Shown: positions 173 to 25,395 of the stretch, one piece after another | How the letters are laid out: each line of letters begins with the position of its first letter | How positions within the stretch are numbered: position 1 is the stretch's first letter | NCBI GenBank assembly: GCA_031266115.1 | Contig: JAISBQ010000088.1 | Span: forward strand, 1-42,731 | Reading direction: 5' to 3' | Length of the DNA stretch: 42,731 bases | From: Bifidobacteriaceae bacterium | GTDB taxonomy: Bacteria > Actinomycetota > Actinomycetes > Actinomycetales > WQXJ01 | Notes under the pieces: generated by a model | Told to the model about the DNA's origin: nothing | Database searches by the model: none | What the model saw: only the letters and a program-made list of their open reading frames with translations | Program-made: the position numbers and the translations under genes

Positions 173-1093
173 CTATTCCGCGGCGGCGCGCTGAGCGTAG
201 AAGTCCGCACTCGCTTCACCGAGAATGTCTGTGAGTTCGCGATAGCTCGATTCCGAACCCGCCGCCGCGTCTGACACCCCGGGGACTTCTACCTGGATCG
301 ACGGGTGAAGGTCACCCTTGCCAGTGATCACGTAGTCAGGATCCTCTTGCATCTCGGCGATCTTCTCATCAAAGTTTGGGCATTCCGCCAACAAGGATCG
401 CAGATCCTCGGCCGTCATTGTCAGTGGGATCGTTGCCGATGGTGATGTTAGCCAGTTGTCAGCAACCCCCGGCTCCACATCTGCCCACTCCGGGTATCCA
501 TTCTCCCGAGCGCACGCGATCCAGTCGTTTGTGGCATCCGCCAACATTCGCTTTCCCGTGAGTTCATCTGTCAGATCCGGCTCCGTGAGCGGGTCAACAT
601 AGTCGGACGACTCGGCGCACGCTTGATAGTCAGCCGAATAGTCGACTCCGTCGACCACAAGTCCGTACGACCAACCTGCGTCCGTTTGGTGACTCGCAAG
701 GAAGGTCGCGTATTCGTCGGACGCTGCGACTTCTTCCGCATCTGCCCCAGGACCCGCAATCAACGCTGCCGGACCCAGCGGCCCACTCGAGAACACTTGG
801 TGTGTGCCCTCCTCCCATCCCACGAGCTTCCCACCTTCCACCGTCGATACGGTCGCGGGCAGTTCCGCTGCCATAAGGCACTCGTAGAAAGACTCAGCAC
901 TCTCGCCTTGCGAACCTTCGGAAGAGCCAGTCTCCTTCTCAATCGAGGCGACATCTTCGCCACCGGCACAACCGCCCACGATCAACATCGCTACCAGAAC
1001 ACCGCCGACTGCGGTCAATCGAGGGCGTGTCCGCGGTACGGTCAGTGACGCGTCGAGCAATCGAAGGAGCCTCTGCCTTCTAGACATATTCAT
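173..1093 (-). CDS. Secreted lipoprotein of unknown function (acidic, four-Cys); paralog of 1156-1612 and distantly of 18767-19759
   Basis: 306-aa ORF with GGAAGGAG 7 nt upstream of the ATG at 1093. It has a basic N-terminus, a hydrophobic span and a lipobox-like IVGGC. The mature part is acidic with two Cys pairs (YECLMAAE...QACAE and WIACARENG...AECPN). No family recognised by eye. Confidence 0.75.
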   Translation of the reverse strand: MNMSRRQRLLRLLDASLTVPRTRPRLTAVGGVLVAMLIVGGCAGGEDVASIEKETGSSEGSQGESAESFYECLMAAELPATVSTVEGGKLVGWEEGTHQVFSSGPLGPAALIAGPGADAEEVAASDEYATFLASHQTDAGWSYGLVVDGVDYSADYQACAESSDYVDPLTEPDLTDELTGKRMLADATNDWIACARENGYPEWADVEPGVADNWLTSPSATIPLTMTAEDLRSLLAECPNFDEKIAEMQEDPDYVITGKGDLHPSIQVEVPGVSDAAAGSESSYRELTDILGEASADFYAQRAAAE

Positions 1094-1612: not shown

Positions 1613-2286
1613 GTACGCTCCCACAGGAGATTGGCGGGACTCTGCTGATTCCAGAGACAAGTCAACGGTGATATTCCCATTGGGGAGCCTAGGGCGTCGA
1701 CTCCGATAGTTGATTTGTCCTGATTTCCATCGGGTACGGCCACACGATGTGGCGCGACCCGAGTGAGATTGTGGCAGATCGGCGAGCTGAACGTCAAATC
1801 GGCATGCACGAGCGTTGCTGGGGTTGTGGCTTATCGGCGACGCCCCGCGCGTATTCTCTTGTTTGACCTGGTGTTTCGGTTGAGGAACCGCTGAAAGCGG
1901 TGTGCCCCCACACTGACCGCAACGGCCTGAAGGTCACGGTCATGTGAGCAACCTCGCCCGGGCGCGAGCCCGGCTTCTCGGTGGCGTGCTGGCCCACCCC
2001 GGAGGAGCGCCGGAGCATCCACCTCAGACCGCGGGCCCGTGCTCGCCAAAGCGTCGCCCCAGCACCTCTCTACTCGTCAAGGATCCGCTCGGACCGGCCG
2101 ACGTGAGCCGAGTGGCGGTCCGCGGTCCAACCCAGCAAGCGGACACGCGCTCTTGTCCGCCCCACCCACGATCCCGGCGTCGGCAAGCCCGACCAGCGCG
2201 CGATGCGCTACTGGGGGCGTCACGTCAACTGCGGGCTCGCTGACGTGGCAGTCAGCACAGGAACGGAGGCGAGCGTGCCGAGCGTG

Positions 2287-2633
2287 CTACGTTGCCCTTG
2301 CGACGAGTCCGATCTGGGATCGGGGGCCCGCCTGCGCGCGCTGGAAGCCTGGCATCTGCGCAACCTGGGGCCGAGGGACGGGCGACTCGTAGCGGCTCTT
2401 GCAGGCGTATATCTCCAGAGTTTCGCCGGTGAACTGGAAGACCAGCCGGTTGGCTTCGTCGATGCGGACGCTCCACGACCCGGACAGATCGCCGCGCAGG
2501 CACCCCGGGTCGCCCGTCGTCTGGTAGCCGTTGCGGTCAATGTCGCGGATCAGCCGGTTGACGCGCCTCAACGTCCTGCGGTCTGCCACCACAGGTAGTC
2601 GTCCCAGGCGGTGTCGCGCCACGACTTCAGCAT
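2287..2633 (-). pseudogene. yoeB: YoeB/Txe-family toxin, frameshifted near its 5' end and with an extended 3' end
   Basis: Track ORF 2287-2622 reads DRRTLRRVNRLIRDIDRNGYQTTGDPGCLRGDLSGSWSVRIDEANRLVFQFTGETLEIYACKSRYE. This is colinear with E. coli YoeB as I recall it (KRIVKKINELIKDTRRTPFEGKGKPEPLKHNLSGFWSRRITEEHRLVY...IAACRYHY). The expected N-terminus MLKSWRDTAWDDYLWWQ exists but lies in a different frame, starting at ATG 2633-2631 and stopping at 2568. The frames switch around 2583-2588. The ORF also runs about 32 codons past the usual RYHY-type end. Confidence 0.6.
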
Positions 2634-2881
2634 CAGATGTCGATCAACTCGTTGACAGCCATGCTGCGCCCGGCCTCAGCGTTGGCGCGGACTTGACGCA
2701 GATGACCCATGTTGCGTGCCGGCCCGTCGCGGCCCGGATCGGCGCGACAAGGATCGCGTTCGGACGGGTCGCTGAACTGCCGCGCCCTGCGTGCCGGGTG
2801 CTGCAGTTGCTTCTGTTCGGCGCGCTCGGCTTCGATACGTTGGGCGGCGCCGGTGAGGTTGCACAGTTGTACTGTCCACAT
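2633..2881 (-). CDS. Putative Phd/YefM-like antitoxin, possibly degenerate
   Basis: 82-aa ORF whose TGA overlaps the toxin ATG by 1 nt (TGATG at 2631-2635). The C-terminal HLRQVRANAEAGRSMAVNEL resembles the LLRSPANARRLM segment of YefM-type antitoxins. The N-terminal half is not recognisable. Confidence 0.4.
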   Translation of the reverse strand: MWTVQLCNLTGAAQRIEAERAEQKQLQHPARRARQFSDPSERDPCRADPGRDGPARNMGHLRQVRANAEAGRSMAVNELIDI

Positions 2882-2907
2882 TGCTCAACGAACGGTGGTC
2901 TTCGTCC

Positions 2908-3261
2908 ATGAGCACACCAGTCTTGACCTTCGGCCCGGAGGTCTTGCGCCAGTCCGGAGAGCCGTCTGCGTGGGAGGAGGCGCTGATCGCGTTCACGCGT
3001 CGGGCGGGCCAGTCCGGGCAGACCGTCGTGGTAAGCACCGAGGCCAACTTGCTCAGCCCCGAAGAGGCGGCGCAGCGGCTCATGGTGTCGCGCTCCACGA
3101 TCTCGCGGCGCATCGCGGACGGGGAGATTCAGGCGGTCAAAGTCGGCAATCGGCACCGCATCCCCTACTCCGAGGTTCGACGCGTGTGGCACGAGTCGAT
3201 GGACGCCATGGCCAAGGTCGTGGCCCCGGACATCGAGGCGGAACTGTTTGGGGATGAGTGA
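2908..3261 (+). CDS. Helix-turn-helix (excisionase/MerR-type) DNA-binding protein, likely antitoxin of the downstream PIN gene
   Basis: Start taken at ATG 2908; the track ORF begins at an upstream TTG at 2881. LLSPEEAAQRLMVSRSTISRRIADGEIQAVKVGNRHRIPYSEV is a typical excisionase-family HTH. Its TGA (3259-3261) overlaps the ATG (3254) of the PIN-like ORF. Confidence 0.65.
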   Translation: MSTPVLTFGPEVLRQSGEPSAWEEALIAFTRRAGQSGQTVVVSTEANLLSPEEAAQRLMVSRSTISRRIADGEIQAVKVGNRHRIPYSEVRRVWHESMDAMAKVVAPDIEAELFGDE

Positions 3262-3550
3262 GGGTTCCGCGCCACTGGTGTTCCTCGACGCGAACATCCT
3301 GGCCAAGCCGGTCACGCGCACGGAAGTTGATCTACGCGAGCAATGCCAGCGGCTACCGTGTGGCGTGGAGCCGGCACGTCGAGGACGAGGCGGACCGCAA
3401 CCTCCGGCCTCACCAGGCGCCGACCAGGGTCGCGCGTGAGGCCGCCCGGCTCGGTCTGACGGAGCAGGGCGTCGACGCCGAGCGGCACACGGCCATCGAC
3501 GCCTCGGTCGCGTGCACGTTCGCCACGACATCACACACACGGGTGTCGAC
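3254..3550 (+). pseudogene. PIN-domain toxin remnant, frameshifted and 3'-truncated
   Basis: ATG 3254 gives MSEGSAPLVFLDANILAKPVTRT, a PIN-type start with the first acidic residue in FLDAN. The sequence KLIYASNASGYRVAWSRHVEDEADRNL continues in the next frame, consistent with one extra base near 3323-3325. No in-frame stop occurs before the convergent giant gene ends at 3551, and the distal PIN acidic motifs are not seen. Confidence 0.5.
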
Positions 3551-6500
3551 CTACCCGGCCACCGCGCGCACTGGGATGGAGACCGCCTTGCCGCGGGCCT
3601 TGATACGGATGGTCGCTTTGCCTGCCTTCTTCGCGGTCAAGCGACCAGCCTTATCGACGGCGATGACGGAGGGCTTGGACGAGGTGAAGGTCACCGTGAG
3701 GTTGGTGGCCTTGGCCGGACGCGGCGTCACCGTGATCCGCGCGGCCCTGCCCACCCGCATGGTTGTGCCCGTCTTCGCCTTCAGCGATGTCAAGCCGCGC
3801 GCCTCGGACACCACGGTGACACGCAGCTTCAGCGAGACTCCACTCGCCGCCTTGGCTCTCACCGTCGTTGTCCCGGTCGCCTTCGCTGTGATACGCCCGG
3901 TCGAATCGACCGTTGCCACCGACGGCTTAGAAGATGACCACGTCAACGCGGCCTTCGCCACACCCGTCCCCGTTCCCGATATGGCAATAGGCGGACGCAC
4001 ACTCGTCCCCTTGGCCACATACAGGGTCTTGAGTGGACTCGCCAGGCGCGTGACCTTCGCCGCCACCGGGGCATCGACGCCATCGCGCGGCCCAGCCGCC
4101 GCAGCGCACACCTCGAACCGCAGCCCAAGGCTCGCCGAAACCCCCTCGCCCCGCACCTCCATGGTCGCCGTGTGCACACTCGGACCGGCCAGACCCGGCA
4201 CCGGCGCCACCTGGAGCGTGACCCTCCCGCCGGCCGGCACGTCGGCGATCGACACCGGTGTCGCGGCGAAGCTGGCGGGATTGGCCCCCGTCATCTGGAC
4301 CGTCAGCGGCCCCGTCGCCAGGTGCCCCGTGTTGATCAGGGTCACGGTCCCCCCGCCTATCTGCCGGTAGCCAGCCTCGGCCCGCCCAAAGTCGTGGTCC
4401 TCGCCGGGTGTCAACACGATCCCCCGCGCCGGCTGCGCTATCCAGCCCACGTGGAACCGCGTCACGTTCCCCGCGCGATCACCCACTTCCACCTCAAGCG
4501 GCCCACGGACATCGGCCGGCACGAGGCCCCGATACAGCCCGCTAGCACCATCGACGAGCGTCAACGGCTGGCGCACCCATCCTTCGGCCACGAGGTTCAC
4601 GAACGCCAACCCACTCAGCGGGTCCGCGAACCGGCCGCTCACCTCGAGTTGCCGTCCATCGGCGACGATGACGCTGCCAACCTCCCTCAATGCCGTCCCG
4701 TCCGCACTGCGCACCGTGGGGCTCTCGAGCGCTGTCGGCCCCTCGCGGTCGATCCGCAGGTCGAGCGTCTGCTCACCCAGGGTCTGCTCCGCCTCATCGG
4801 ATACCCACGCCCGCACCTGATGCCGACCATCGCCCACCGACACGATGGTCACGGGCCATCCGTCGAACCCGTCGACCCGGACCGGCGGTCCATCGTCCAG
4901 CCGGTAGAACAGATCGCGCGCCGACCAGTCCCCCCGCGGACCGGCCACCCACGCCATCACGGCCACGGGATCGCCGCCGGAACCGCTCCCACCTATCCAT
5001 TCGCCATCGGGCTCCGGATCGGACCGCAGACGCAGGTCAACAAGTCCATCGTCACGCCGGTTATCAACGGCGACCGCGTACGTGGCCACCCCGCGTGGAT
5101 CCCCCGCCGCCGTCACCCGCACCTGAATCCGGGTTTGACGGCTCGCGCCATCGGCGGAGGCCCGGCCGATCGGCACCACAGCGGTAGCCGACCCCTCGCC
5201 GCTCCCCAACACCGCTCCATCCCCGAGAATCTCGACGATGGCGGCCGGGTTGTTCGCGCGCGCCGTCACGCTGGTGGTCGCCAAGTTCACGGTCGCGTAG
5301 CTGTACTGCGTCTGCCCGCCGGCCAGGATCTCCGGGGCGATCCCGGTCATCGCAAGCGAGGCGAGACCATAGGGCACCTCGGCCACATCGGCGATGTACT
5401 GCGTCTCGATCTCCGAGCCCTGCCCGGAGAACCGAACCTCACCCTCGACCGTCTGCTCGGGGCCAAGGTCCAGGGTTCCCACCGAGCCGGACAACCATCG
5501 GGATTCGACCACCTGTCCGGCATCGTCCACCAGGCTCACCATCAGGCTCCCGCCAGTCCGTGGGGCGAGTGACAGGTTACGGACCTCCACCTGGGCCACC
5601 GTCTGGGAACCGTCAGCCGCCATCTGGGTGTCCACAGCGACCCCGCTGTCCGTGCCGGACGCCGCGAGCGACGCGAATGTGACCCGCGTGAGGTTGTTGG
5701 CATCTCCGGTCTCGCGGATCGCCTTGCCGTCCTCCTCGATCCACGCCTTGACGTACAGCTCAATGCCGTCCTCAGGAATCTCGGCCCCGCCACCGTGGGC
5801 ATCCAGCCATTCGGCGACATCGAGAGGCTCGGCGAGCGTGGTGACATACGCCCCAGCGTCGATGGCGGCCAAGGTTGCGTCATCCGACACCGAGATCGTG
5901 GGCAGGGCAGGGGAATCCACGCCGGCGTCGGCAAAGAAACCCACCTTGACGGTGCGCCCGCTACCCGCCAACGGGTAGGCCGAGGCGTTGTACAGCGGCA
6001 CTGCGATATCGCGCTCGCCGTCCGCCTCCTTGATCACGGCGATATCGCCAATCCCCACGTCGTTGAACGTCAGGTACAGGTCGCCGTCAACGGCGTGGCT
6101 GGTGCCGTCCGCGAAATCGGCCACCACCCGGTAGCCGGGGCTGACGATGGTCTCGCCCACGGGATAGAAGACGTTGACCGCTGTGGACGCGCCGGGGGCG
6201 AGCCCGAAATCGTCGAGCGTCCGCGCCACCACACCCTGCGACGCTCCGGGATCGATGAACTCGACCCGCAAGGTCGTGATGGTGCTGGCGCCAGTGTTGT
6301 GGACGGTCAGCCCTACCGGCAGGTCGGCGTTCACCGCTAGATCTTGGTAACTGGGCAGCACCGAATCGACCTCGAACTCGCTTGTGAACGTGCCCGTGGC
6401 CGCGTAGATGCCGGCCACGGTGACGGGGAAGGACGCCGAGGGCTCCCCATCGGTCCCGGGCACGGTCTCGACCTGACCGGTCGCCTTGGAGCCCACAAAC

Positions 6501-9500
6501 AGGAACCCGAGGCTCCCGGCGTCTGCTCCCCACGCGGTGTGGGCGTCGACGCTGACCCCGTCGGCAGCTGTCGCGAGGACCGTCGGGGCCGACGCCATCA
6601 CCTGGCCGCCCTCCCGGCCCAACCGGACTCCCACCAGCGAACCGGTGGCGGCGAGCGGTCCAGTCCCGGCCGGATCGTCGGGGACCTCGGCGCTGGGCCA
6701 CACGATCGCCAGGTCCTCGACACGCCCACCGGTTCCTTCGACCAGGTGGAAGTCCATCGCCGGCGCCTGGCCATCCGCGGTCGCGGCAAGTGATTCGGGC
6801 AGGTCCGGACGCAGCGCACCCGTCGAATCGAATGCCGTCAAGCGAATGTCCGAGGTGACCTCACTCGTGTCGAGATCGCGATCTTCGTGATGCCACCCGA
6901 GAACAAACAGGTCCTCGCCACCTGATGTCGCCGTCGCGAGGCGCGGATTGGTGTCCGGCTGATCGTCGCTGGTGACCTGGATCGCTTGCACCACGCGGTT
7001 GAGACCCTGACCGGCCTGATCTGCGGTCAGTGCCGCCGCCGGATCGGTATCGACGATGGCGTACCGCACCTGTGTGCTCCCATCCGGCGATGTCGTGGTG
7101 TAGGCGACCGCCGCGGTGCCATCCGCGCCGATTTCCGCGTCGAGTCCCACCACGGGTCCATCCGACCCGGAATAGAGAACCTCCGTGGCTGGTGACCAGC
7201 CGCGGGCGGCGTCCCACGTCCGGTAGGCGATGGTTCCGTACGACCCGACCGTGGCTGCATCGGATCCCTGGGCGAGACCGGTCCGCCACGCCACGATGGC
7301 GCGACTCCCAGTCGTGGCCACCGCGGGCCCGACATCGGGGGCCGAATTGGCGGTCAACTGCTGGGTCCGCCACTGGCCGTCCTGACGCACCGAAGCGAAG
7401 ACCTCCGTGCTTTGGGCCATCGCGGCCACATCGCTCGGGGCCGTCTCGCCGGCGTAGTCCGCCGCACCACCGGTGGCGACACGCACCCATGCGGCCATGC
7501 CCGTTCCCAAGTCGCCGTCGAAGGCAAGCTGGGCGTCGCCGTACCCCCCGGCCGCGATCATGCCGTGATCGACATAGCCGGTCGCGGTCGATTCGGCCCA
7601 GGCGGCGCGCGTGCGGGTCGCATCGGTGGAGCCGAGGTCCGACAGGTAGACAAACCCGCCGCCATCGTCCGCCGCCACGGGCGCGGAATAGGGGTTGGCG
7701 TTCGTCTGAACGGCGGTGGGGGTCTCAGCAGCCACTGCGGAGACCATCTGCACTACGCGTGACGCGCGCGCAAGACTGGCCTGCGTGGGCCACGTGCGGG
7801 GTGCCAGGTCGAGGTAGTCGCGATTCTCAACCTCCCAGACACTACGCCCCATGGATGACGCGAGAGCGAATTGGCTCGCATAGGCCTGCGCCGCCGCCTG
7901 GGCCTCGGCGACGCTGCCGTCGACGTTACGCCCCGTTGTCGCTAACCAGTATTCGCTGATAAGGTCCCAATGGTTCCACCGCCACAGGTCCGAGGCGAAT
8001 TCCACTGAAAGGAGTGTTGCCGAGGCGCTGAAGATCAGGAACTTGACCTCGGCCTTGATCCCAAGCTCACCGTTCAATCGCAAAGAGTTTCCGTACCGCG
8101 TCCGGTCCGCGGAAGATGCCAAGGACGGGCGCATCAGCCAGGAATTGTTGTACTCGATGCCGATCCGGCCAAAGATCCCGATCTTTGCGCCCACAACACC
8201 CAAGTCGAACCCGAGACCGGCGAAGGCATCGATATACGCCGCCACCCGAAGACCCACGATGTGGTCGGTCACCGAGGAACGGGAGGGATCCGCCCATGCC
8301 CACGTCACCCCGTCCACGGTCGCCTGTTCGACAAGCCGGTGCGCCCCCCAATTGACAGCCAGCGACCCGCCGATCTCCAAGCTGACGGTGAGCGGAACCG
8401 GCCCGACTGTGAAGTTGTTGGTCCAGTTGTAGCTCATCGATCCGCCGGCCTCGAACCCGCCTCCCACGACTTCGAATCGCCATGCCGCCCTGGACACATC
8501 GTAAACGATCAGCCCTTCGAAATATCCGGACATTCCGAAGGAATAGTCGAGACCGCTCGTGCCACCATCCCGGATCGCCTCATCCAAGTCGCCATCGGGA
8601 TCATAATTGCCGCGGGCCATATCGATCTGATCCTTTTGGCTCGGCAGGAAGGAAAGGTCGACGGATTCTTCGGGGTCGTAGAAGATCGAGTGCGGACCCA
8701 CCTGCCAGCCAGGTTCGAGATTCGCGTGCTCAATCTCGCTGCCCAAGGACGTGGTGACCAACGTATTGAATTGGAACGGATCGTCTGTGGGACTGATCAG
8801 GACGTTGAGATTCTCGTTGCCGATCTCGATGTTCGACAAGAAATCCAATCCGTACTGAACGATCTTGTTGACACCGGAGGGCTGCGGCTTGGCAACGGAG
8901 CCGGCGACCATGGAGTCGGTGACCTCGGCCACGGCGTCCGTCGGATCGAGCACAAGCCCCACGGAATTGGCGACCGAGACCTCGGAGGTGAAAGACGCCA
9001 TCGTCCGCCCGTCGGGGTGGCCGAGCTTCACGGTCAATGAGCGCCGTTCGCCGGTCGGCATCCACAGCGTCGATTCGTTGATCACCAGGTCGGTCTCAAC
9101 CACCACAAAGGTCGAGAACGGGTGCTGGATGGCACGGGAGGTCTGGCTGGTTGGCCGCGTGCCGGTCTCATCCACCACCCACCCGCGCAGCGACGCACCG
9201 GGGGCGGGCAGGCCCGCGGTGTACATCGTGGAGCGGAGAGTCACTTCGCGCTGGCGATCCGAGACGCCGATGCTGCGAGCGCCCGTGGTCGAGAGCACCG
9301 TGCCACCCTCACCGAGCACCCACTGCCTCGCCAGCACGCCGAAGGTCCCCGCCCTCGCCTCGGCGAGTTGGACGGCCGCGGTAGTTTCGGGAACCCTGGC
9401 GGCCTGCCCCACGGCCTCGTCGACGGTGACGGTCTCGGGGCGGTACCGGTTGCCCGGCACCCGGATTTCGAAGGCATAGGACAGCACCGTGCCGGCCTCA

Positions 9501-12500
9501 AGTCCCACACCGTCGTCCGCCAGCGCGGAAACGTCCCACTCGACGGTGACGGTCCCCCGCCCATCGGAGCGCATCGCCTGAGGCTGACCCCGCGGGGCGA
9601 GTTGGGAGCCGGCAGCGTAACTGCCGTTCTTGTAGATCCCGCCATTGATGAGGACCTCACCCACATAGGGACCATCGGGGCCCGTGAGGACCAGCTTGAC
9701 CGTGGCGGCGGGTAGCAGCGAGAGCCGGTTGACCGGATACTGCTCCATCCGCGTCCAGTCCCGCTCACCCGACACCAGCGCCTGGGCGCGCAGGGTCCCA
9801 AGGTACGTTTCGCCATCGGACACCGACCGGGCCTTCACGTCGCTGGCGATGCCGTCGGCGACATAGGCGGCCAACGAGCCGGCCGCGTCAGTCCGCAGCC
9901 GATGGACCGTTCCCCTGGTGTCGGTGAACTCGACATCGGTCGCCACCTGCGGGGAGAACTGGAACAGATACAGCTTGTTGGTCAAGGTCTCCACGCTCAC
10001 GTCCAGGCTCACCTGGCTTCCGGTGGCGGCGTGCGTGGCCGTGATCGTGGTCTCGCCGTCGCGATGCCCGGCCAGCGGCAGATCCGTGGCCGGTGGCAGG
10101 GTCATCCCCGGGTTGGCCTCGACGTTCTTGAGCAGGGGTCCTTGGCGCACGTGGAGGGAGGCCACCGAGGTGTCGGACGATTCCCACGCCAGGCGGTCCG
10201 CGACGGCGCGCCACGCGTCGGAGGAGTAGTTGACGGACACCACCGAACGCAGCGACAGCCGGTCTTCGCGATATGCCCGGAGCAGTTCGGCGGAGGTCGC
10301 GGTGGCGGCGAAGCCGGCGTTCGATACCGTGGTCCGACCCTGGGGTGCCGCGCCATCCACAAGGATTTGCAGAGCCGACTGGTTGAACGATGTCAGCACG
10401 CTCGACGCGTAGACCCACGGGGCGCTGGCCGCGTTGCGAGACTTCAGACTCACCGTGTAGATCGACTTCAACTGAGAGGCCGGCAGGGGATCGATCGCCA
10501 GAGTGTAGGACCCGCCCGTGGGACCGACACCGTCGGCCAGGCGCCCGTCCTCAGCGAACGTGAACGTGCCTGGGGCACCAGCGCTGCCGGGTGTGAACAC
10601 GATCTGGCTGCCGGGCAGGACCACCCCATCACGGGCGATAGCGAAGTCGAAGCCGCCGGAATAGACCATGTCGAATTCCGTCATCGTCCAGGAGAAGCGG
10701 ACGTTGCCGTGGGAGTCGAGCACCGCGTCACCGTCCGCGTTGGAGGACAACTCCACGGTCACCGGTGGCGGCATCACCACGATGCCCCCCGCAGCGGTGA
10801 GCGTCTGGGACGGGGTGTACGGATTGACCACTCGCACCAGGAAGCTGTACGTGGGACCACCGAACGGGGAGACCTCGGTCACCAAGCCGGGTGGTACCGT
10901 CCAACTCGCCTCCCCCGGCACGGTGGCCGAGGCGATCGGTCCGAGGCTTCCCGTCTCCCCGAGGCGCGAAACCATGTCCACCTGGCTCACATCCCCGGCA
11001 AACACGTCCACGAGATAGTCGGTCGCTTTGGGCGGGATCGCCGTGGAATTCAGGTAGGCGACGTTAGAGACCCAGCGCAGGGTCGGGTCCTCGCCGCGTT
11101 TGATCGACATCGCCCCGGACGTTCCGGGAAGCCGCAGATAGGGCACGCCATCGGTGATGAGCTGAATCTCCGCGCCGGTGACGGTCACGTCCGCGTACGG
11201 CCCGTTCTTCGCGGTCAATACCGGGACCACGGTTCCTGGGGCGGCGCCAGTCGGGATGATCTCCCCCGTGGCCGGATCGATCGACGCGATCGTCCCGAAA
11301 TCGCTGTCCGTGCCCAGGAGCGACCATTCGAACTGATCGGGGGCGAGGTAGGTGGCCGCCGGCTTGTCGTGAGTAAAGGTGAGCTGCTGGATGGGATCGT
11401 CCGCGCGGATCGCGTACGGAGGCGCGCCCCACGCGTTCGGATACTGAATCTGAAGGTCATCCGCCTCCAGCAGGATGACCGCCTCGACGTCGAAATCCGC
11501 GTAATAGGGCGTGCCGACCAAGGCGCGCCATTCCGGCGCCGCCTCGGTGCCGTCGTTGATGAACAGCTCCACCCTCTTGCGGGCAAACGTCGGGGACGAC
11601 GTCACCGGGAAACTGGCCGTCAGCGCCGTGCCCTGGGAGTTCATGGACAGAGCGAACAGATGGTCCACCCCACCCACCGACGCCATGACGGACCGCACCC
11701 GGCCCTGGTTCGCCGCCGCCTCCGCGCGCAGCGGCCCCGATGGCGCGAGAGCAACGGTGACGCCCCCGTTCGTGGCCGTCGCGGGGAACTGGGTGTGGCT
11801 GACGCTAGTCTGGACGATCTCGGAGACCGGATCGCCCGGGAACGCGATCGCGCCCCTCCCCGACACGTCGACCGGTTCGCGGTCTGTTGTTGACACATTC
11901 ACGCCGTTGCGGTCCTGGCCAGTACTCTTGGCGCCCGTCCAGAGCCCCGTGAACTCCACCATCTGAGGGTCGGCCACCTCAAGGAAGAACGTGTGCTCTT
12001 CGGATGTCCCCGCGTCTTGAGTGGGCAATTCAATGGATCTCTCGTCGATCGTGGGGAGTATGAGACGCGGATCCTTGACGGGCTCGGAATAGACGGCCGT
12101 GAGGGGCATCAGGCTACCGGTCGGATACGTCCCAGCGACGGCCCGGACGGAGACCAAGGATGGTAGGGATTCCACCACTGAGACTTGCAGCTGGGAGAAA
12201 TTGATGTTCCATCCGGTATGGCTTCGGTCTGGGGTCTGGGCGACCGCGGTCTCCAGCCCGACATCTAGGAACAGGGACGGGTTGGGGCAGGATGAGTTCT
12301 GGCCGGCCGCGGCGCGGACGAAGGCCGAGGGGAAGTCCAGTGGCTCGTTTCTTCCCACGTCGACAGACCTGGGCCCGCGGGCGGACGTTGGCATGGAGGC
12401 GTCGAGCGACTGGCAGTAGGTCGAGAACCCCGGACCGTTCGCGAGCCCAAACGTCGCATCAATCGTGGATGCTCCGGAGATGAGGTGCCAATCGTCGAAG

Positions 12501-13708
12501 TCCAGTAGCAGCCGAGACACCTCGTTGCGGGAGAATTTTCGCCGGACGTCCGCGGACAGCGGACCGAAGTTGATCTGGTATCGCATCGCGCCCTGTGACG
12601 TGGCACCCGAGTAGTAGAAGACTTCGTTGCTGGCGTCGATGGAGGCCCGTCCGTCCGTCATCGTCATCTGCAACGTCTTGGGGCTCGAATAGCTCGTGGC
12701 CCCGCCGGGCTCGGCGATGAGCCCTCGGGCAAGAACGGCCTGGGCCGGCACGATCTCCTCGAATTGTTGCTGGGCGTACTCAGGGTCGCTGCGTGAGACC
12801 GTGCCGTGGACGGAGGCGTACGTCTTCCCGTCGGTGAACAGTGCCCCGCGCAGCCTGGAGAACTCGACCAGGAACGACTTCTTGCCATCCCAGACCTCGG
12901 TGATCGGGTCTGTGGGTGCCAAGGCGGGTTCGGCGGCGGTGAATGTCAGGGTTTCGGTGAGGTTGGTGGTACCGGAGAGGAACTCGATGGGGAAGGCCTC
13001 ACCCGAACGCTCGATCGCGGTCGTAGTACCCAGCCTGCCCGTGTAGTGGGTCCGGTATCGGGCCGATCCGTCGATGGGGCGCACCATGACGCTCACATCC
13101 TGCGCGGGGACGGCGGACAGGGTCAGCGTGATGGTCTTGGACCCGCCAGGCGCAAGGTCCAGGTCGCCCGTGATGGCCACGGTCAGGTCCTGCTGGGCGT
13201 AGCCCTCGTCCCGCGGTTCGGCCGCCGCCGCGATCTGGAGACCGCTGGACTCGATCTGGGACAACAGCGAGGACACCGAGGACCGGTGGGCGTCCGTGAG
13301 TGGCTTGTCGGTGAAGTAGGTCTCGTTCAGCCGGGCCACCTCGGACTCGATCTCGAACATCGTCTTGATGTCGCGGAGCGCCACTGCGGCGCCATCCACG
13401 GTCGCGGTCCGCGTCAGGTCCGTGGCGCCATCGAACACGAGCGTCTCCAGGGCGCCCGCCGCGTACGCGCGACCATCCACCACGGCCTCATGGACGATGG
13501 CGCGCCCCGCCTCGTCGACGAGCCCGAGGCTGCGGAGCATCTCCACGCTCGCGGAAAGGCTGGCCCCACCCTTCGCCAGGGCCGGCGACGTGGGCGCGGC
13601 CCACGCGAGACCGTCGAGGCTGGTCACCCCCACGGTGAGGGCGAGCGCACCCGCCAATGTTGAGGCGAGAGCGCGGTGGGCATGGGAAACAACACGTCGG
13701 TGGAACAT
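3551..13708 (-). CDS. Giant secreted multi-domain surface/adhesin-like protein (3385 aa)
   Basis: Single uninterrupted 10158-nt ORF with GGAGA 9 nt upstream of ATG 13708. It has an N-terminal Sec-type signal, and its recognisable modules are listed as separate features. No LPXTG-type sorting signal, lipobox or C-terminal TM segment was seen. Confidence 0.9.
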   Translation of the reverse strand: MFHRRVVSHAHRALASTLAGALALTVGVTSLDGLAWAAPTSPALAKGGASLSASVEMLRSLGLVDEAGRAIVHEAVVDGRAYAAGALETLVFDGATDLTRTATVDGAAVALRDIKTMFEIESEVARLNETYFTDKPLTDAHRSSVSSLLSQIESSGLQIAAAAEPRDEGYAQQDLTVAITGDLDLAPGGSKTITLTLSAVPAQDVSVMVRPIDGSARYRTHYTGRLGTTTAIERSGEAFPIEFLSGTTNLTETLTFTAAEPALAPTDPITEVWDGKKSFLVEFSRLRGALFTDGKTYASVHGTVSRSDPEYAQQQFEEIVPAQAVLARGLIAEPGGATSYSSPKTLQMTMTDGRASIDASNEVFYYSGATSQGAMRYQINFGPLSADVRRKFSRNEVSRLLLDFDDWHLISGASTIDATFGLANGPGFSTYCQSLDASMPTSARGPRSVDVGRNEPLDFPSAFVRAAAGQNSSCPNPSLFLDVGLETAVAQTPDRSHTGWNINFSQLQVSVVESLPSLVSVRAVAGTYPTGSLMPLTAVYSEPVKDPRLILPTIDERSIELPTQDAGTSEEHTFFLEVADPQMVEFTGLWTGAKSTGQDRNGVNVSTTDREPVDVSGRGAIAFPGDPVSEIVQTSVSHTQFPATATNGGVTVALAPSGPLRAEAAANQGRVRSVMASVGGVDHLFALSMNSQGTALTASFPVTSSPTFARKRVELFINDGTEAAPEWRALVGTPYYADFDVEAVILLEADDLQIQYPNAWGAPPYAIRADDPIQQLTFTHDKPAATYLAPDQFEWSLLGTDSDFGTIASIDPATGEIIPTGAAPGTVVPVLTAKNGPYADVTVTGAEIQLITDGVPYLRLPGTSGAMSIKRGEDPTLRWVSNVAYLNSTAIPPKATDYLVDVFAGDVSQVDMVSRLGETGSLGPIASATVPGEASWTVPPGLVTEVSPFGGPTYSFLVRVVNPYTPSQTLTAAGGIVVMPPPVTVELSSNADGDAVLDSHGNVRFSWTMTEFDMVYSGGFDFAIARDGVVLPGSQIVFTPGSAGAPGTFTFAEDGRLADGVGPTGGSYTLAIDPLPASQLKSIYTVSLKSRNAASAPWVYASSVLTSFNQSALQILVDGAAPQGRTTVSNAGFAATATSAELLRAYREDRLSLRSVVSVNYSSDAWRAVADRLAWESSDTSVASLHVRQGPLLKNVEANPGMTLPPATDLPLAGHRDGETTITATHAATGSQVSLDVSVETLTNKLYLFQFSPQVATDVEFTDTRGTVHRLRTDAAGSLAAYVADGIASDVKARSVSDGETYLGTLRAQALVSGERDWTRMEQYPVNRLSLLPAATVKLVLTGPDGPYVGEVLINGGIYKNGSYAAGSQLAPRGQPQAMRSDGRGTVTVEWDVSALADDGVGLEAGTVLSYAFEIRVPGNRYRPETVTVDEAVGQAARVPETTAAVQLAEARAGTFGVLARQWVLGEGGTVLSTTGARSIGVSDRQREVTLRSTMYTAGLPAPGASLRGWVVDETGTRPTSQTSRAIQHPFSTFVVVETDLVINESTLWMPTGERRSLTVKLGHPDGRTMASFTSEVSVANSVGLVLDPTDAVAEVTDSMVAGSVAKPQPSGVNKIVQYGLDFLSNIEIGNENLNVLISPTDDPFQFNTLVTTSLGSEIEHANLEPGWQVGPHSIFYDPEESVDLSFLPSQKDQIDMARGNYDPDGDLDEAIRDGGTSGLDYSFGMSGYFEGLIVYDVSRAAWRFEVVGGGFEAGGSMSYNWTNNFTVGPVPLTVSLEIGGSLAVNWGAHRLVEQATVDGVTWAWADPSRSSVTDHIVGLRVAAYIDAFAGLGFDLGVVGAKIGIFGRIGIEYNNSWLMRPSLASSADRTRYGNSLRLNGELGIKAEVKFLIFSASATLLSVEFASDLWRWNHWDLISEYWLATTGRNVDGSVAEAQAAAQAYASQFALASSMGRSVWEVENRDYLDLAPRTWPTQASLARASRVVQMVSAVAAETPTAVQTNANPYSAPVAADDGGGFVYLSDLGSTDATRTRAAWAESTATGYVDHGMIAAGGYGDAQLAFDGDLGTGMAAWVRVATGGAADYAGETAPSDVAAMAQSTEVFASVRQDGQWRTQQLTANSAPDVGPAVATTGSRAIVAWRTGLAQGSDAATVGSYGTIAYRTWDAARGWSPATEVLYSGSDGPVVGLDAEIGADGTAAVAYTTTSPDGSTQVRYAIVDTDPAAALTADQAGQGLNRVVQAIQVTSDDQPDTNPRLATATSGGEDLFVLGWHHEDRDLDTSEVTSDIRLTAFDSTGALRPDLPESLAATADGQAPAMDFHLVEGTGGRVEDLAIVWPSAEVPDDPAGTGPLAATGSLVGVRLGREGGQVMASAPTVLATAADGVSVDAHTAWGADAGSLGFLFVGSKATGQVETVPGTDGEPSASFPVTVAGIYAATGTFTSEFEVDSVLPSYQDLAVNADLPVGLTVHNTGASTITTLRVEFIDPGASQGVVARTLDDFGLAPGASTAVNVFYPVGETIVSPGYRVVADFADGTSHAVDGDLYLTFNDVGIGDIAVIKEADGERDIAVPLYNASAYPLAGSGRTVKVGFFADAGVDSPALPTISVSDDATLAAIDAGAYVTTLAEPLDVAEWLDAHGGGAEIPEDGIELYVKAWIEEDGKAIRETGDANNLTRVTFASLAASGTDSGVAVDTQMAADGSQTVAQVEVRNLSLAPRTGGSLMVSLVDDAGQVVESRWLSGSVGTLDLGPEQTVEGEVRFSGQGSEIETQYIADVAEVPYGLASLAMTGIAPEILAGGQTQYSYATVNLATTSVTARANNPAAIVEILGDGAVLGSGEGSATAVVPIGRASADGASRQTRIQVRVTAAGDPRGVATYAVAVDNRRDDGLVDLRLRSDPEPDGEWIGGSGSGGDPVAVMAWVAGPRGDWSARDLFYRLDDGPPVRVDGFDGWPVTIVSVGDGRHQVRAWVSDEAEQTLGEQTLDLRIDREGPTALESPTVRSADGTALREVGSVIVADGRQLEVSGRFADPLSGLAFVNLVAEGWVRQPLTLVDGASGLYRGLVPADVRGPLEVEVGDRAGNVTRFHVGWIAQPARGIVLTPGEDHDFGRAEAGYRQIGGGTVTLINTGHLATGPLTVQMTGANPASFAATPVSIADVPAGGRVTLQVAPVPGLAGPSVHTATMEVRGEGVSASLGLRFEVCAAAAGPRDGVDAPVAAKVTRLASPLKTLYVAKGTSVRPPIAISGTGTGVAKAALTWSSSKPSVATVDSTGRITAKATGTTTVRAKAASGVSLKLRVTVVSEARGLTSLKAKTGTTMRVGRAARITVTPRPAKATNLTVTFTSSKPSVIAVDKAGRLTAKKAGKATIRIKARGKAVSIPVRAVAG
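3554..4054 (-). other. Two C-terminal Big_2 (bacterial Ig-like group 2) modules, strongly basic
   Basis: LTWSSSKPSVATVDSTGRITAKATGTTTVRAKA and VTFTSSKPSVIAVDKAGRLTAKKAGKATIRIKA are classic Big_2 signatures (S.v.tvd..G.vta...G.a.i.a). These last 167 aa are K/R-rich, in contrast to the acidic bulk of the protein. Confidence 0.75.
4105..4425 (-). other. ASH / choice-of-anchor-D-type Ig module
   Basis: VLTPGEDHDFGRAEAGYRQIGGGTVTLINTGHLATGPLTVQMTGANPASFAATPVSIADVPAGGRVTLQVAPVP...ATMEVRGEG. Confidence 0.45.
5050..5310 (-). other. Cadherin-like beta-sandwich module
   Basis: QYSYATVNLATTSVTARANNPAAIVEILGDG...IQVRVTAAGDPRGVATYAVAVDNR fits the Y.v.V...v.v.a....a.v.i.g...i.V.a.dg..tY.i.v.R consensus I recall for the bacterial cadherin-like domain. 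Confidence 0.45.
5400..6345 (-). other. CARDB-like Ig modules (about three)
   Basis: DLPVGLTVHNTGASTITTLRVEFID, DIAVPLYNASAYPLAGSGRTVKVGFF and VAQVEVRNLSLAPRTGGSLMVSLVDDAGQVV all fit the v.v.N.G...a....v.l pattern of CARDB modules. Confidence 0.45.
6450..7650 (-). other. Beta-propeller-like repeat region
   Basis: Recurring short strand motifs: AAWVRVATGG, VFASVRQDGQWRTQQL, RAIVAWRTG, TIAYRTWDAARGWSPATEV, TAAVAYTTTSPDGSTQVRYAIVD, LFVLGWHHED, LAIVWPS. The assignment is tentative. Confidence 0.35.
7960..8560 (-). other. Unassigned beta-strand-rich Gly/aromatic core segment (~200 aa)
   Basis: GLDYSFGMSGYFEGLIVYDVSRAAWRFEVVGGGFEAGGSMSYNWTNNFTVGPVPLTVSLEIGGSLAVNWG...GLRVAAYIDAFAGLGFDLGVVGAKIGIFGRIGIEYNNSW...LRLNGELGIKAEVKFLIFSASATLLSVEFASDLWRWNHWDL. 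It shows alternating hydrophobic/polar runs separated by Gly turns. No family recognised. Confidence 0.5.
12800..13190 (-). other. Calx-beta-like module
   Basis: DLTVAITGDLDLAPGGSKTITLTLSAVPAQDVSVMVRPIDGSA...DGKKSFLVEFSRLRGALF follows the Calx-beta pattern (v.f.aGe..k.i.v.i..d...E..E.F.v.Ls...ga.l). Coordinates are approximate. Confidence 0.45.
13598..13708 (-). other. Sec signal peptide of the giant protein
   Basis: MFHRRVVSHAHR (basic), ALASTLAGALALTVGVTSL (hydrophobic), then GLAWA/AP as an AxA-like cleavage site. Confidence 0.7.
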
Positions 13709-13857
13709 CGGGGTGTTCTCCGGTTCTCAAGGGCCCAGGCAAGGCCTGGGGAAGGGGCAGCCAGCACAAACTAGGGTGCGCCGCACAGCCCGCCGCCGGG
13801 GGCCAACCGCAACGTCGGCCCACCACCATCACACTGCCAGACGCACCAACGAACCTA

Positions 13858-15345
13858 TCAGGAACCGTCTTTGTCAGGAGCGTCATCCAGAATGGCGCGA
13901 ATCCGCTCCAGCCGCTCGGCGACCTGGCGTTCAAAGCCCCGGCCCGTAGGTGTGTAGTACCGCCGGCCGGTCAACTCTGGTGGCGCGTAGCGTTGAGCAG
14001 CGATTCCGTGAGGTTCGTCATGCGCATAGACGTATCCTTCGCCGTGTCCGATGCGCTGCGCACCGGCATAGTGGGCGTCGCGCAGGTGCGGTGGCACGAG
14101 CCCAATCCGGCCGGCGCGAATGTCGGCCAGCGCGGCGTCGATCCCTAGGTAGGCGGCGTTCGACTTGGGCGCCGTCGCCAGATATACGACGGCTTCGGCC
14201 AATGGAATCCGTCCCTCCGGCATGCCGATGAGTCCGATGGCCTGGGCGGCGGCCACCGCGATGGGCAGGGCCTGAGGATCGGCCATGCCGATGTCCTCCG
14301 CCGCCAGGACCACGATCCGGCGGGCGATGAACCGTGCGTCCTCGCCCGCCTCGATCATCCGGGCCAGGTACGCCAGCGACGCGTCCACGTCCGAGCCCCG
14401 CACCGACTTGATGAACGCCGAGATCACGTCGTAATGCTGGTCGCCGTCCTTGTCGTACCGCACGGCGGCGATATCGACAGCCCGGCGGACCGTCGCCACA
14501 TCGATCACCGGCGGCTCGCCGGCCGACTCGCTCCCGGAGTCCCGGTCCCCGGCGCCCCGGTCCCCGGCGGCATCGGAGGCGGCACCCGCCGCCGCCTCCA
14601 GGATGGTCAACGCTCGCCTGGCGTCGCCGCCGGCCAGCCGAATGAGTTGGTCGCGGGCCTCACCGTCCAGGGCGACCATCCCCGCGAGGCCGCGCTCGTC
14701 GCTCACGGCACGATCGATCAACAGCCCCTGATCGGCATCGTCCAACGGTTGAAGTGTCAGTAGGAGGGACCGGGACAGCAGCGGCGAGATCACCGAAAAC
14801 GACGGGTTCTCGGTGGTCGCGGCGATCAGCGTCACCCAGCGGTTCTCGACGGCGGGCAGCAGCGCGTCTTGCTGGGACTTGGAGAACCTGTGAACTTCGT
14901 CGATGAACAAGACGGTCTCCCGCCCGCCGGCCGCCAAGGCTCGCTTGGCGACGGTGACCACGTCTCGGATGTCCTTGACACCGGCGTTGACCGCGCTGAG
15001 CTCTGTGAACGCTCGCCCCGACCCCCGCGCCACGAGGTAGGCGAGGGTGGTCTTCCCGGTTCCCGGAGGCCCCCACAGGATCACCGACGATGGCGCCGCC
15101 CGCCCCTCCCCGCCCGCCACCAGCCGCCGCAGGGGCGCCCCAGGGGTGAGTAGGTGCCGCTGCCCAGCCACCTCATCCAGACTGCGCGGCCGCATCCGTA
15201 CGGCAAGCGGCGACCGGGGGTCGACATCCGGCAACCCGACACCGTCGCGGCCCACCGCATCGAAGAGATCCACCCGCCAAGCGTAGATCGGCGTGTGCAT
15301 GCGCGAGCCCGTGCCATGACGAGCTTCCGTGAGACACCCTCGCAC
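13858..15345 (-). CDS. rarA: Replication-associated recombination protein A (AAA+ ATPase)
   Basis: DLFD...[21 protein letters not shown], Walker [16 protein letters not shown], Walker [10 protein letters not shown], and a MgsA-type C-terminal helical domain. The true start may be the internal ATG at 15300. Confidence 0.9.
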
Positions 15346-15361: not shown

Positions 15362-16573
15362 TCACCGACGCAGTGCCATCATGGGGTCAACCCGACCGGC
15401 TCGGAGCGCGGGAGCCAGGCCCGCGAACAAACCCACTCCTGCGCCGAGTATCGGGGCCAATGCGGTAATTCTCGGGTCCATGACCGGTGTCCACTCCAGG
15501 GCCCAAGAGGCCACAACCACCGACAGAGTGCCGATGCTCGCGCCGACCAGACCCGCTAGCGCGCCCACCGACACAGTCTCGGCTATGACCTGGGCGACGA
15601 TGTGCCGAGGCCGAGCACCCATGGCGCGACGCAGACCAAGCTCCCCCATGCGCTCGACCACCGACAAGAGCGTCGCGTTCGCGATCGCCGCCGCCCCGAT
15701 GAGCACGGTGATTGCCGTCAACGCCAAGAAGAGCGCAGTCATCGACGTCGCAACAGTGGTTTCCACGCGGGGAGGGTCGGCGGGAGGAAGCACGGCTATC
15801 GACTCCGGGGCATCGGGTCGCAACGCCAGGGAAAGCAACCTGCTCACCTGGTGAGCGGCTCCAGGATCGACGTCAACCACCATTGAGGCCGGAGCATCCG
15901 CCGACGGCCGTCCGAACGACTCGGCAGCAACGGCCTCGGGAATCGCGGCCCCGGCCAACACCTCGCCACGCCGTTCCACGTCAGCGAGAATGCCGACCAC
16001 GACATAAGCCGAGCCCGCGAGGTACACCGTCGCCCCGGCGTCGTCAACGTCCAGGCCCAAGCGCTGGGCCGCGGCCGATCCCAACACCGCGGCATGAATC
16101 CCGGATTCGGCTTCGAACCGTGCCAATCCCCTGCCCGAGGCAAAGGTCGGGTGTAGGGCGGCGAGATATCCGGGTGACACCGCAGTAACAGGGATCATTT
16201 GCGGGCCTGTGAAAGCGTCGATCGCAGTGACCGCCTCGGCGAGTGTCCCGGGGATCGGCCAGGCCACGCCGCATGCCCGCACCCCGGCAAGACTGCTCAC
16301 CCTGCCCTCAGCATCCTGGGGGAACGAGTACACCGAGCCGTCCGGATCCGCCTGCCCAGCGTCGTTGACATACACCTCGGTTGCCTTCAGAACGGAGAAG
16401 TCCTCCGAGATTTGCCCGGACGCCGTCGCGGTCAAACCCAAGACCGCGACGAATGCCGCGATTCCCAACGCGGTGCCCGACATCGTCCCGATCATCCGTG
16501 AGGGTCGCCCGCCCAGTGCTGCCACAGCCTCGGAAAGGACAGCACCCCACACCGCCCGGCTCGCAGCGCTCAT
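15362..16573 (-). CDS. MacB-type (FtsX family) ABC transporter permease
   Basis: 403 aa with an N-terminal TM, a ~230-aa extracytoplasmic domain and a C-terminal three-TM FtsX module ([19 protein letters not shown]...[15 protein letters not shown]). Its ATG overlaps the ATPase stop (ATGA at 16570-16573). Confidence 0.85.
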
Positions 16574-19759: not shown

Positions 19760-19805
19760 CCTAGTTCACAACAATCCTATCTATCAACGCAGAGCCGGAA
19801 CAGTG

Positions 19806-20156
19806 CTAATCCACATGGATCTGCACTATCCTTGCGAGAGACTGGGGAAATGGATCGCTCGCCCATTTTCCGAAATACCTCGTATATCTGGATGAATTCC
19901 AGTAGTACGCGAAAGAACCAGCGTTGTTGCCAGCTCGAAATGCACCAACATTGTAGAGCTCGACCAAGACGTTTCCGCTGTTCGCCCAGCAGGTGGTTGC
20001 ATCGGAATAGAGAGTGAGCCAGTCGTTGCGCGAGCCGCATGGGTTGATGCGATTGATCGCGTAGGCGCCGTTCGCGCCTAAAGCAATAGACAAGAAAGAG
20101 GCGAGCAACGCCCCGACGAAGAGTCTGAGCGCTGAGCGGGTTAGCCGTTGTTTCAT
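19806..20156 (-). CDS. Small Sec-secreted two-Cys protein, probable Streptomyces killer-toxin-like (SKLP) / AFP1-like family
   Basis: 116 aa with GGAAGGA 7 nt upstream of ATG 20156. A 33-aa signal peptide ends AYA, leaving an 83-aa mature protein starting INRINPCGSRNDWLTLYSDATTCWANSGNVLVELYNVGAFRAGNNAGSFAY. The INR..C, TxC[FW]AN[AS]G and GNN motifs match the ~85-aa Streptomyces killer-toxin-like/antifungal proteins as I remember them. Local G+C is low: 46 percent by hand count over 19861-19960. Confidence 0.55.
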   Translation of the reverse strand: MKQRLTRSALRLFVGALLASFLSIALGANGAYAINRINPCGSRNDWLTLYSDATTCWANSGNVLVELYNVGAFRAGNNAGSFAYYWNSSRYTRYFGKWASDPFPQSLARIVQIHVD

Positions 20157-20214
20157 GGTTTGATCCTTCCGCGAGACAGTAATCTGGGTCCCAATGGTCG
20201 CCTGTCAGAGCCGA

Positions 20215-25341: not shown

Positions 25342-25395
25342 TCGGGAACGTCCTTTCCGATTGGGCCCCAGCCGCCGGCTGGGCGCGCCACGATC

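Follow-up and report, generated by a model that had tools for sequence, protein, structure and literature searches.

The 42,731-nucleotide stretch of DNA analysed here (contig JAISBQ010000088.1 of assembly GCA_031266115.1, a Bifidobacteriaceae bacterium; hereafter the window, at its full length) carries on its minus strand, at positions 3551-13708, a single uninterrupted open reading frame (ORF) that opens at the first possible ATG and encodes a protein of 3385 amino acids (aa), followed by a stop codon. An earlier note, made from the letters alone, had described the product as an orphan mosaic surface protein with an export signal and no recognisable anchor. The homology searches and structural models presented here place this giant protein, of approximately 350 kDa and very acidic overall, in a conserved family that has gone unnamed and whose members share one domain order. 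The features of the gene and its product are given below, where representatives are the best 150 members of the family (P0001-P0150), aligned by BLAST with the full giant protein.

3551..13708, minus strand: giant ORF, complete, 3385 aa plus stop codon (ORF call; frameshift-free ortholog at locus L081)
13717..13721, minus strand: ribosome-binding site GGAGA, 9 nt 5′ of the ATG (read from the sequence)
13598..13708, minus strand: Sec-type signal peptide, aa 1-37, predicted to be cleaved after AWA (sequence; strongest hydrophobic window of the protein)
12779..13561, minus strand: conserved N-terminal region, aa 50-310, with a Calx-beta-like module at about aa 185-265 (family-wide BLAST coverage; profile match)
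12194..12778, minus strand: lineage-variable insert, aa 311-505, holding Cys 432 and 474 (6-9 of 150 representatives align)
8969..12181, minus strand: conserved array of immunoglobulin-like (Ig-like) beta-sandwiches, aa 510-1580 (colinear homology; intimin-type profile match; aa 1458-1581 modelled)
7844..8836, minus strand: conserved core domain as modelled, aa 1625-1955 (AlphaFold2)
7973..8563, minus strand: seven-strand amphipathic beta meander, aa 1716-1912, the hallmark of the family (model confidence; conservation)
6521..7657, minus strand: beta-propeller of about six blades with a sialidase/HN fold, aa ~2018-2396 (about 24 strands in the model; Foldseek)
5129..6511, minus strand: conserved CARDB-like and cadherin-like beta-sandwich modules, aa ~2400-2860 (weak profiles; homologs; family coverage)
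4097..5128, minus strand: Ig-like spacer modules of lower conservation, aa 2861-3204 (aligned in 1-35 of 150 representatives; Big_13 E = 0.019)
3554..4096, minus strand: C-terminal Big_2 pair, aa 3205-3385, a proposed wall-binding module (Pfam E = 2.3e-16, 2 stretches)
13858..15345, minus strand: rarA/MgsA, upstream neighbour, given for context only (Pfam MgsA_C E = 7e-68, AAA_assoc_2, AAA)

The gene is separated by 149 nt from rarA, which lies upstream on the same strand, and both the continuity of the frame and this arrangement agree with the earlier note. The composition is that of the core genome, as had also been claimed: the G+C content is 0.670, the G+C content at third codon positions (GC3) is 0.826, and codon usage correlates at r = 0.93 with that of core genes (rarA, aspS, hisS, relA and others). 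Long tandem repeats had been reported as absent, and indeed Tandem Repeats Finder returned 0 rows for the gene and self-BLAST of the 3385-aa protein revealed no internal repeat. Promoter and terminator consensus scans at both ends of the gene found nothing. The protein contains three cysteines, two of them at positions 432 and 474; a thioester or alpha-2-macroglobulin-like protein was considered and rejected on account of this low number and the absence of a CGEQ motif.

An ortholog of the gene is present in the metagenome-assembled genome (MAG) GCA_031265195.1 (locus L081), whose product P0001 (MDR1152079.1) is 88.6% identical to the giant protein. At the nucleotide level the two genes share 87.6% identity over 9963 nt without a frameshift, the contig of the ortholog beginning inside the gene. 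The ratio of nonsynonymous to synonymous substitution rates (dN/dS) between them is 0.17 as a whole and falls to 0.05-0.06 within aa 1565-1864, which indicates that the giant ORF is a functional gene and that constraint is strongest in its beta-rich core. The unassigned beta-rich core perceived in the earlier note is therefore real, and it is the most conserved portion of the protein.

The N-terminus combines a basic n-region, a 19-residue h-region and an AWA/AP site, a signal of the Sec/signal peptidase I type that had been recognised correctly from the first, and a signal-like N-terminus recurs in 104 of the 150 representatives. Export by the twin-arginine (Tat) route was judged unlikely, given that the RR pair lies far from the h-region and that the protein is very large. 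At the opposite end, the LPXTG motif is absent and the last 40 residues are not hydrophobic; all sortase-like strings are internal (LPGTS at 860, LATTG at 1922, LAATG at 2352 and LAMTG at 2785), and neither a lipobox nor a C-terminal hydrophobic or transmembrane segment is found in the giant protein, so that the anchors listed as missing in the earlier note are missing indeed. The S-layer homology (SLH) domain (PF00395) likewise gives no Pfam match in it up to E = 10.

To define the domains of the protein, Pfam was searched with the whole sequence, with ten overlapping tiles of 380 aa at E ≤ 10, and with eight short homologs. The two terminal Big_2 domains, as predicted, are the only significant matches in the giant protein; between aa ~300 and ~2400 nothing beyond chance-level hits was obtained from the whole protein, the tiles or the eight homologs, and a central stretch of about 2000 residues has no profile match in Pfam or NCBIfam. 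Within NCBIfam, the giant protein returned a sub-threshold choice_anch_D match alone. A sequence search of the PDB with the giant protein as query yielded Big_2 matches only, and the same search with the family profile yielded only Big_2, SLH, Calx-beta and intimin-type modules.

Several of the weaker modules named in the earlier note can be followed through the family, though not at threshold in the giant protein itself. The Calx-beta-like module has no Pfam match there; it is retrieved by the family profile against the Calx-beta domains of NCX1 (E = 3.6e-7) and by Pfam in the homologs P0003 (191-261) and P0013. The internal Big_2-like module near aa 820, which belongs to the Ig-like array together with a LYLFQ module near aa 1290, is called from a Pfam Big_2 match in the homolog P0004 at 745-791 and has no significant match of its own, and the cadherin-like module is in the same position, being seen through P0028 and P0140. 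A CARDB match at aa 2455-2531 (E = 0.0045) does occur but falls below the curated cut-off, and appears weakly again in P0145; the ASH-like (choice_anch_D) module at aa 3096-3185 reaches E = 2.7e-5 but only 24.7 bits against a cut-off of 45. The carboxypeptidase-regulatory-like modules were a motif resemblance alone, with no profile match at the residues concerned: the sole CarboxypepD_reg match seen lies in the C-terminal extension of P0011, at a position that is not homologous.

To search for relatives, a HMMER scan was run with aa 1201-2400 as query against 1.84 billion representative sequences (cut-off E ≤ 1e-3), and it found 407 homologous clusters at 50% identity, 224 of them at E ≤ 1e-30. 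The homologs are nearly all 2000-6000 aa long, and residues 1-1200 of the query are matched at approximately residues 1100-2400 of the homologs. Across the best 150, the body is colinear over aa ~50-310 and ~510-2800, in some up to ~3090; single BLAST high-scoring segment pairs span aa ~510 to ~3090, and beyond about aa 2900 the tail varies. Because the match falls at the same relative position and the homology is colinear, the giant protein is a member of a family and not an orphan, and the term mosaic does not fit either, since the domain order is the same across the family and colinearity with homologs of another phylum extends over about 2500-2700 residues. Trp, Gly, Asp and Arg are invariant at many columns of the family alignments (A1-A3). 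Longer members differ by additional Ig-type spacers (12 Big_1 or 4 MBG_2) before the C-terminal end, and carry no enzyme domains.

Other routes gave a very different picture of the same protein. An exact look-up of the 3385-aa protein found no identical record, a word-indexed homology search returned 0 homologs with aa 1450-2050 and 5 with the core of a Bacillota member as query, no close relative emerged when genome contigs were scanned with the entire protein, and scans of metagenome contigs with aa 1-500 and aa 1561-1960 found no match. Set against the 407 clusters recovered by HMMER, the 0 or 5 hits of the word-indexed search show that orphan calls based on indexed searching alone are unreliable; for very long, compositionally biased proteins, such calls can be artefacts of the index.

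The carriers are mostly Bacillota, with a few MAGs of Actinomycetota, and those that are identified by name are monoderm. They include Paenibacillus sp. SZ31 (WP_169483215.1), Bacillus sp. TS-2 (GAF64861.1) and Solibacillus, as well as MAGs assigned to Lachnospiraceae, Defluviitaleaceae, Clostridiaceae, Clostridiales Family XIII, Lactobacillales, Bifidobacteriaceae and Propionibacteriaceae; a low K/(K+R) ratio, used as a proxy for high-GC hosts, is found in 8 of the 150 representatives only. Product names in the source records refer to peripheral domains ('S-layer homology...', 'Ig-like...', 'InlB B-repeat...', 'cadherin-like...') or read 'hypothetical', and no paper on the family was found in the literature. 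Two diverged paralogs, P0010 (MDR0945002.1) and P0012 (MDR0945784.1), both stem from MAGs that bear the label Bifidobacteriaceae; the closeness of their accession numbers points to a single assembly, and if this holds, more than one copy of this gene of about 9 kb per genome would be possible.

Domain order is conserved among the homologs, but the position beside rarA is not. The rarA gene of the window is nearest to those of Antribacter, Cellulomonas and Isoptericola (71-74% identity); in Cellulomonas endometrii and Isoptericola halalbus, alaS lies within about 2 kb after rarA and no homolog of the giant gene is found there. A tblastn search of the 80 rarA loci of related Actinomycetota detected no homolog of the giant protein, so that the rarA-adjacent position is lineage-specific. 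The MAG that carries the ortholog is labelled Bifidobacteriaceae at NCBI, and no named Bifidobacterium occurs among the 80 best rarA loci; in view of these rarA affinities, the family label of that MAG may be imprecise. Comparison of seven genomic contexts of family members revealed no neighbouring gene in common, which indicates that general export and anchoring routes would suffice for these proteins.

The C-terminus differs in kind between family members. When the 150 representatives are sorted by heuristics, about 70 end in SLH repeats (three SLH domains confirmed by Pfam in each of P0004, P0028, P0011 and P0140), 17 end in a transmembrane segment or LPXTG motif (both together in P0050 and P0097), 3 in InlB-B/Flg_new repeats and 5 in Big_2 domains. 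The family profile matches the SLH domain of Sap at E = 1e-17, and P0097, from a Propionibacteriaceae MAG, ends in LPQTG, a hydrophobic segment and a basic tail. In the giant protein this place is taken by the Big_2 pair, whose two copies are 51% identical over 43 aa: these last 181 aa have a net charge of +28, an isoelectric point (pI) of about 12 and 18 of the 53 lysines of the protein, against a pI of 4.45 for the rest. Basic Big_2 ends recur in P0077, P0146, P0125 and P0088, with charges of +13 to +40. That a cationic module stands at the place of the wall anchors of its relatives points to electrostatic, non-covalent attachment to anionic polymers of the wall; judging from its position and charge, the Big_2 pair probably anchors the giant protein in this manner. 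Membership of an already characterised adhesin family with a known anchor would have counted against the earlier note: homologs do bear SLH and LPXTG anchors, but no member appears to have been characterised and the giant protein is devoid of these anchors.

Taken together, these observations lead us to read the giant protein, with moderate confidence and as an evenly balanced judgement, as a Sec-exported surface fibre, composed mainly of Ig-like beta modules and tethered at its C-terminus, that belongs to a conserved unnamed family of Gram-positive envelope proteins. The Sec pathway would export the acidic protein of about 350 kDa. Members of about 3000 residues share a fixed body, composed of the Calx-beta N-region, the run of Ig-like modules, the seven-strand domain, the propeller and the CARDB/cadherin-like modules, and this body is followed by a variable C-terminal spacer and then a wall anchor, which is SLH in most Bacillota members and LPXTG or a transmembrane segment in others. 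Here, two Big_2 domains of pI ~12 occupy the anchor position and may attach the protein non-covalently to anionic cell-wall polymers, while the negatively charged body might project outward as a long fibre. The fibre could then display two parts, its conserved core and the variable tip at its N-terminus, to a ligand outside the cell, which would probably be a glycan or a second surface. The candidate working parts are of two sorts: the variable N-terminal tip (aa 311-505) and the invariant centre, formed by the beta domain and the propeller.

A number of points weigh against this reading. As far as we found, the literature holds no experiment on any family member, and we know of no case in which Big_2 has been demonstrated to be a wall-binding module. 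An anchor could not be recognised heuristically in 55 of the 150 representatives, a class to which many truncated MAG genes contribute in part. The propeller and the beta domain are located in the middle of the chain and not at its distal tip, which is unusual for the binding head of an adhesin, and a simple stalk role does not account for the large face of hydrophobic residues on the beta domain. Finally, the structure models cover aa 1440-2440 of the 3385 residues.

The same C-terminus can be read differently, namely as belonging to a released exoprotein or matrix component whose basic Big_2 tail binds extracellular DNA, acidic polysaccharide or other cells, the protein then acting as a scaffold in biofilms or aggregates. 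A polycationic tail on a polyanionic body would suit the bridging of anionic surfaces, and no covalent or SLH anchor is recognised in the giant protein. Most homologs, however, carry bona fide anchors to their own wall (SLH, LPXTG or transmembrane) at the same C-terminal position, which argues that retention is the ancestral state of the family, and we regard release as unlikely.

The centre of the protein was modelled with AlphaFold2 from family alignments, over aa 1440-2440 (22 homologs) and aa 1625-1955 (36 homologs). The longer model, with a mean predicted local distance difference test (pLDDT) score of 67, contains in order a beta-sandwich (1458-1581), the long strands (1717-1912), helices, the propeller (~2018-2396) and the start of a further sandwich. 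The shorter model reaches a mean pLDDT of 80.7 and a predicted template modelling (pTM) score of 0.72, with values above 90 in the sheet. In it, the beta domain adopts an up-down meander of seven consecutive strands of 19-27 residues, with four flanking helices and short strands. Each long strand has one hydrophobic face (mean Kyte-Doolittle value, +1.2 to +2.3) and one that is polar, Gly-rich or charged, the two kinds of residue alternating along it; this strict alternation and the positions of the Gly residues are kept in 142 homologs, in which a conserved amphipathic helix (W..I..YW, aa 1914-1925) also follows the long-strand sheet. The domain contains an invariant Gly-rich motif, AF-G-x-G-F-D ... 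K-x-G-x-F-G, and the invariant columns of this segment in the family alignments are F390, G392, G394, D396, K403 and G405. An RHS/Tc-type cocoon was considered for this region and rejected, the domain being far too small and free of YD repeats.

These properties could also be those of a membrane- or lipid-active device, in which the beta domain would insert into a target membrane or hydrophobic substrate, or extract hydrophobic molecules from it, the giant fibre being a contact-dependent effector or a binder of hydrophobic ligands. The strand alternation just described speaks for such a device, as does the purifying selection on the beta domain, the strongest in the protein, and its sole Foldseek neighbours, all weak, are TonB-dependent and autotransporter barrels, the pore of perforin and the membrane attack complex (MAC), lipovitellin and MTP (in the PDB, FhuE, the perforin pore, EspP, lipovitellin, MTP and OmpT). 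Yet none of these matches is significant (E ≥ 0.05 and TM-score < 0.3 throughout): the best in the PDB is FhuE at E = 0.05, and the best in BFVD has E = 0.08. The hydrophobic stripes, up to about 18-20 residues long, exceed what the core of a bilayer needs. One polar face bears many charges, so that burial of the hydrophobic residues in a core is no less probable, and from the long stripes and the charged polar face we infer that a buried core or a hydrophobic groove is favoured over a transmembrane belt. No toxin, immunity or secretion partner genes lie nearby in the contexts examined. A membrane-active role is, on balance, quite unlikely.

The propeller-like region of the earlier note is borne out by AlphaFold2 and Foldseek, and it raises the question of enzymatic activity. 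Its top matches in the PDB are bacterial sialidases of glycoside hydrolase family 33 (GH33) and the paramyxovirus haemagglutinin-neuraminidase (HN), at E = 3e-5, and the family alignments show invariant Arg, Asp, Glu and Tyr columns in this region; in the homolog P0137, a faint BNR_2 match is obtained (E = 0.018, against a cut-off of 31.4 bits). The protein might accordingly be a surface-displayed glycosidase, with an active GH33-type propeller harvesting glycans while carried on a long stalk. Against this, no Sialidase or BNR Pfam match at threshold is found in the giant protein or in the eight homologs searched, and the identity of about 10% together with target TM-scores of 0.35-0.44 is typical of generic six-bladed propellers, which makes a glycosidase very unlikely.

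A shear-released surface protein of the MAIN/GAIN type, in which an autoproteolytic GAIN-like domain beside the anchor would free the ectodomain under force, is hardly credible: force-dependent ectodomain detachment has been proposed for many large Bacillota surface proteins with MAIN domains, which are defined by a GAIN-B fold and a conserved H-x-S/T cleavage motif and have a similar layout of signal peptide, adhesion modules, wall anchor and large size (bioRxiv 10.64898/2026.05.12.724683), but no GAIN structure occurs among the listed top 50 Foldseek matches of aa 1440-2440 or aa 1625-1955, no conserved H-x-S/T is seen in the family consensus, and the nearly invariant His belongs to a Big_2-like 'ATHAxTG' strand.

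A bolder proposal concerns the invariant centre itself, which might be a previously undescribed envelope module of monoderms: an amphipathic beta domain of seven strands, roughly 60-90 Å long, combined with a sialidase-fold propeller. It could, for example, be a hydrophobic groove or barrel for the binding or conduction of lipids or further hydrophobic molecules, or a device for insertion into foreign membranes. Members of the family would then be machines and not passive fibres, a possibility that we regard as speculative and doubtful.

The remainder of the window situates the gene in the genome. Positions 21265-32731 hold a conserved actinobacterial housekeeping block (mmpL, aspS, hisS, a metallo-beta-lactamase (MBL)-fold hydrolase, cyclophilin, DUF349 and relA/spoT), which places the giant gene within the core chromosome. 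Beyond rarA, an FtsX/MacB permease (15362-16573) is adjoined by a four-gene block on the minus strand (16570-20304) that encodes an ATP-binding cassette (ABC) ATPase, a 479-aa PG_binding_1 protein and two ORFs of 330 and 175 aa without a Pfam match; the GC3 of this block is 0.53-0.68 and its codon fit r = 0.17-0.70, against a GC3 of about 0.80-0.87 in core genes, and it was probably acquired recently. Downstream of the giant gene, positions 2086-3530 contain toxin-antitoxin and Fic debris: a YoeB_toxin ORF (2287-2622, minus strand, E = 2e-17), an HTH_17 ORF (2881-3261, plus strand), a 63-aa PIN-like stub (3248-3439), and two segments (2086-2282 and 3495-3530) that are 80-89% identical to the Fic gene region 3′ of the ortholog at L081. 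Further along, a 306-aa ORF (173-1093, minus strand) has a lipoprotein-type signal (LIVGGC), no Pfam match and a GC3 of 0.64.

The breadth of the family gives the result its interest. Hundreds of Gram-positive lineages, including gut Lachnospiraceae, other Clostridia, Paenibacillus, Bacillus and Actinomycetota MAGs, have retained a gene about 10 kb long on which purifying selection acts, and for at least 1500 central residues of its product no Pfam or NCBIfam model, solved relative or reported function was found. Naming the family and learning the role of the beta domain and propeller would provide an entry into an unexplored component of the Gram-positive surface, for which cultured carriers exist (Paenibacillus sp. 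SZ31 and Bacillus sp. TS-2, under the accessions given above). The interchangeable C-termini (SLH, LPXTG, transmembrane and basic Big_2) constitute a natural experiment on the swapping of wall tethers, in which the basic Big_2 pair is a candidate new non-covalent anchor.

Comparison with known systems shows where the family is familiar and where it departs from them. With the outer-membrane transmembrane beta barrels, the beta domain has in common an antiparallel meander of amphipathic strands; it differs in lacking significant similarity to any barrel, FhuE being the best, and in the length of its hydrophobic stripes. The structures nearest to aa ~2018-2396 are those of the GH33 sialidases and of paramyxovirus HN, which share the six-bladed fold, as judged from a model of moderate confidence; the sequence identity is about 10% and no Pfam match reaches threshold. 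GH33 enzymes are further characterised by a catalytic Arg triad and a Tyr/Glu pair.

The likenesses at the C-terminus are of three sorts. With SLH-anchored, S-layer-associated proteins of Bacillota such as Sap of B. anthracis (PDB 6bt4/3pyw), those homologs that end in three SLH domains, about half of all homologs, share an N-terminal signal and a C-terminal wall tether; the giant protein lacks SLH, and the family body of about 2500 residues is unrelated to any S-layer protein matched. With adhesins of the LPXTG/MSCRAMM type, some homologs, including P0097, share the LPXTG motif, hydrophobic segment and basic tail as well as arrays of Ig-like modules, whereas the giant protein has no terminal sorting signal, and isopeptide and MSCRAMM domains were not detected. 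The GW modules of Listeria InlB are basic and bind lipoteichoic acid non-covalently. The giant protein resembles this arrangement in bearing a cationic C-terminal module on an acidic surface protein, where relatives carry other anchors; the module has a Big_2 fold and not a GW/SH3-like one, so that the resemblance concerns a possible mode of attachment and not family membership.

In overall build, the giant protein can be set beside the giant Ca2+-dependent Ig-array adhesins SiiE, the RTX proteins of the LapA/MpIBP type, and Bap/Ebh, which contain many near-identical tandem repeats in variable number and many of which are type I secreted. The giant protein resembles them in being very large and very acidic, in its beta-sandwich modules (Calx-beta-, cadherin- and CARDB-like) and in its presumed fibre form, but it has no repeats, a Sec signal, a domain order that is fixed across phyla, and a centre formed by a unique beta domain and a propeller. 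As a kind, giant Ig-array proteins tethered to the wall are already known; the unusual features here are the fixed architecture of about 2500 residues across phyla, the confidently predicted central domain, whose model has no fold match in the PDB or BFVD, and, in the giant protein itself, a probable new type of tether.

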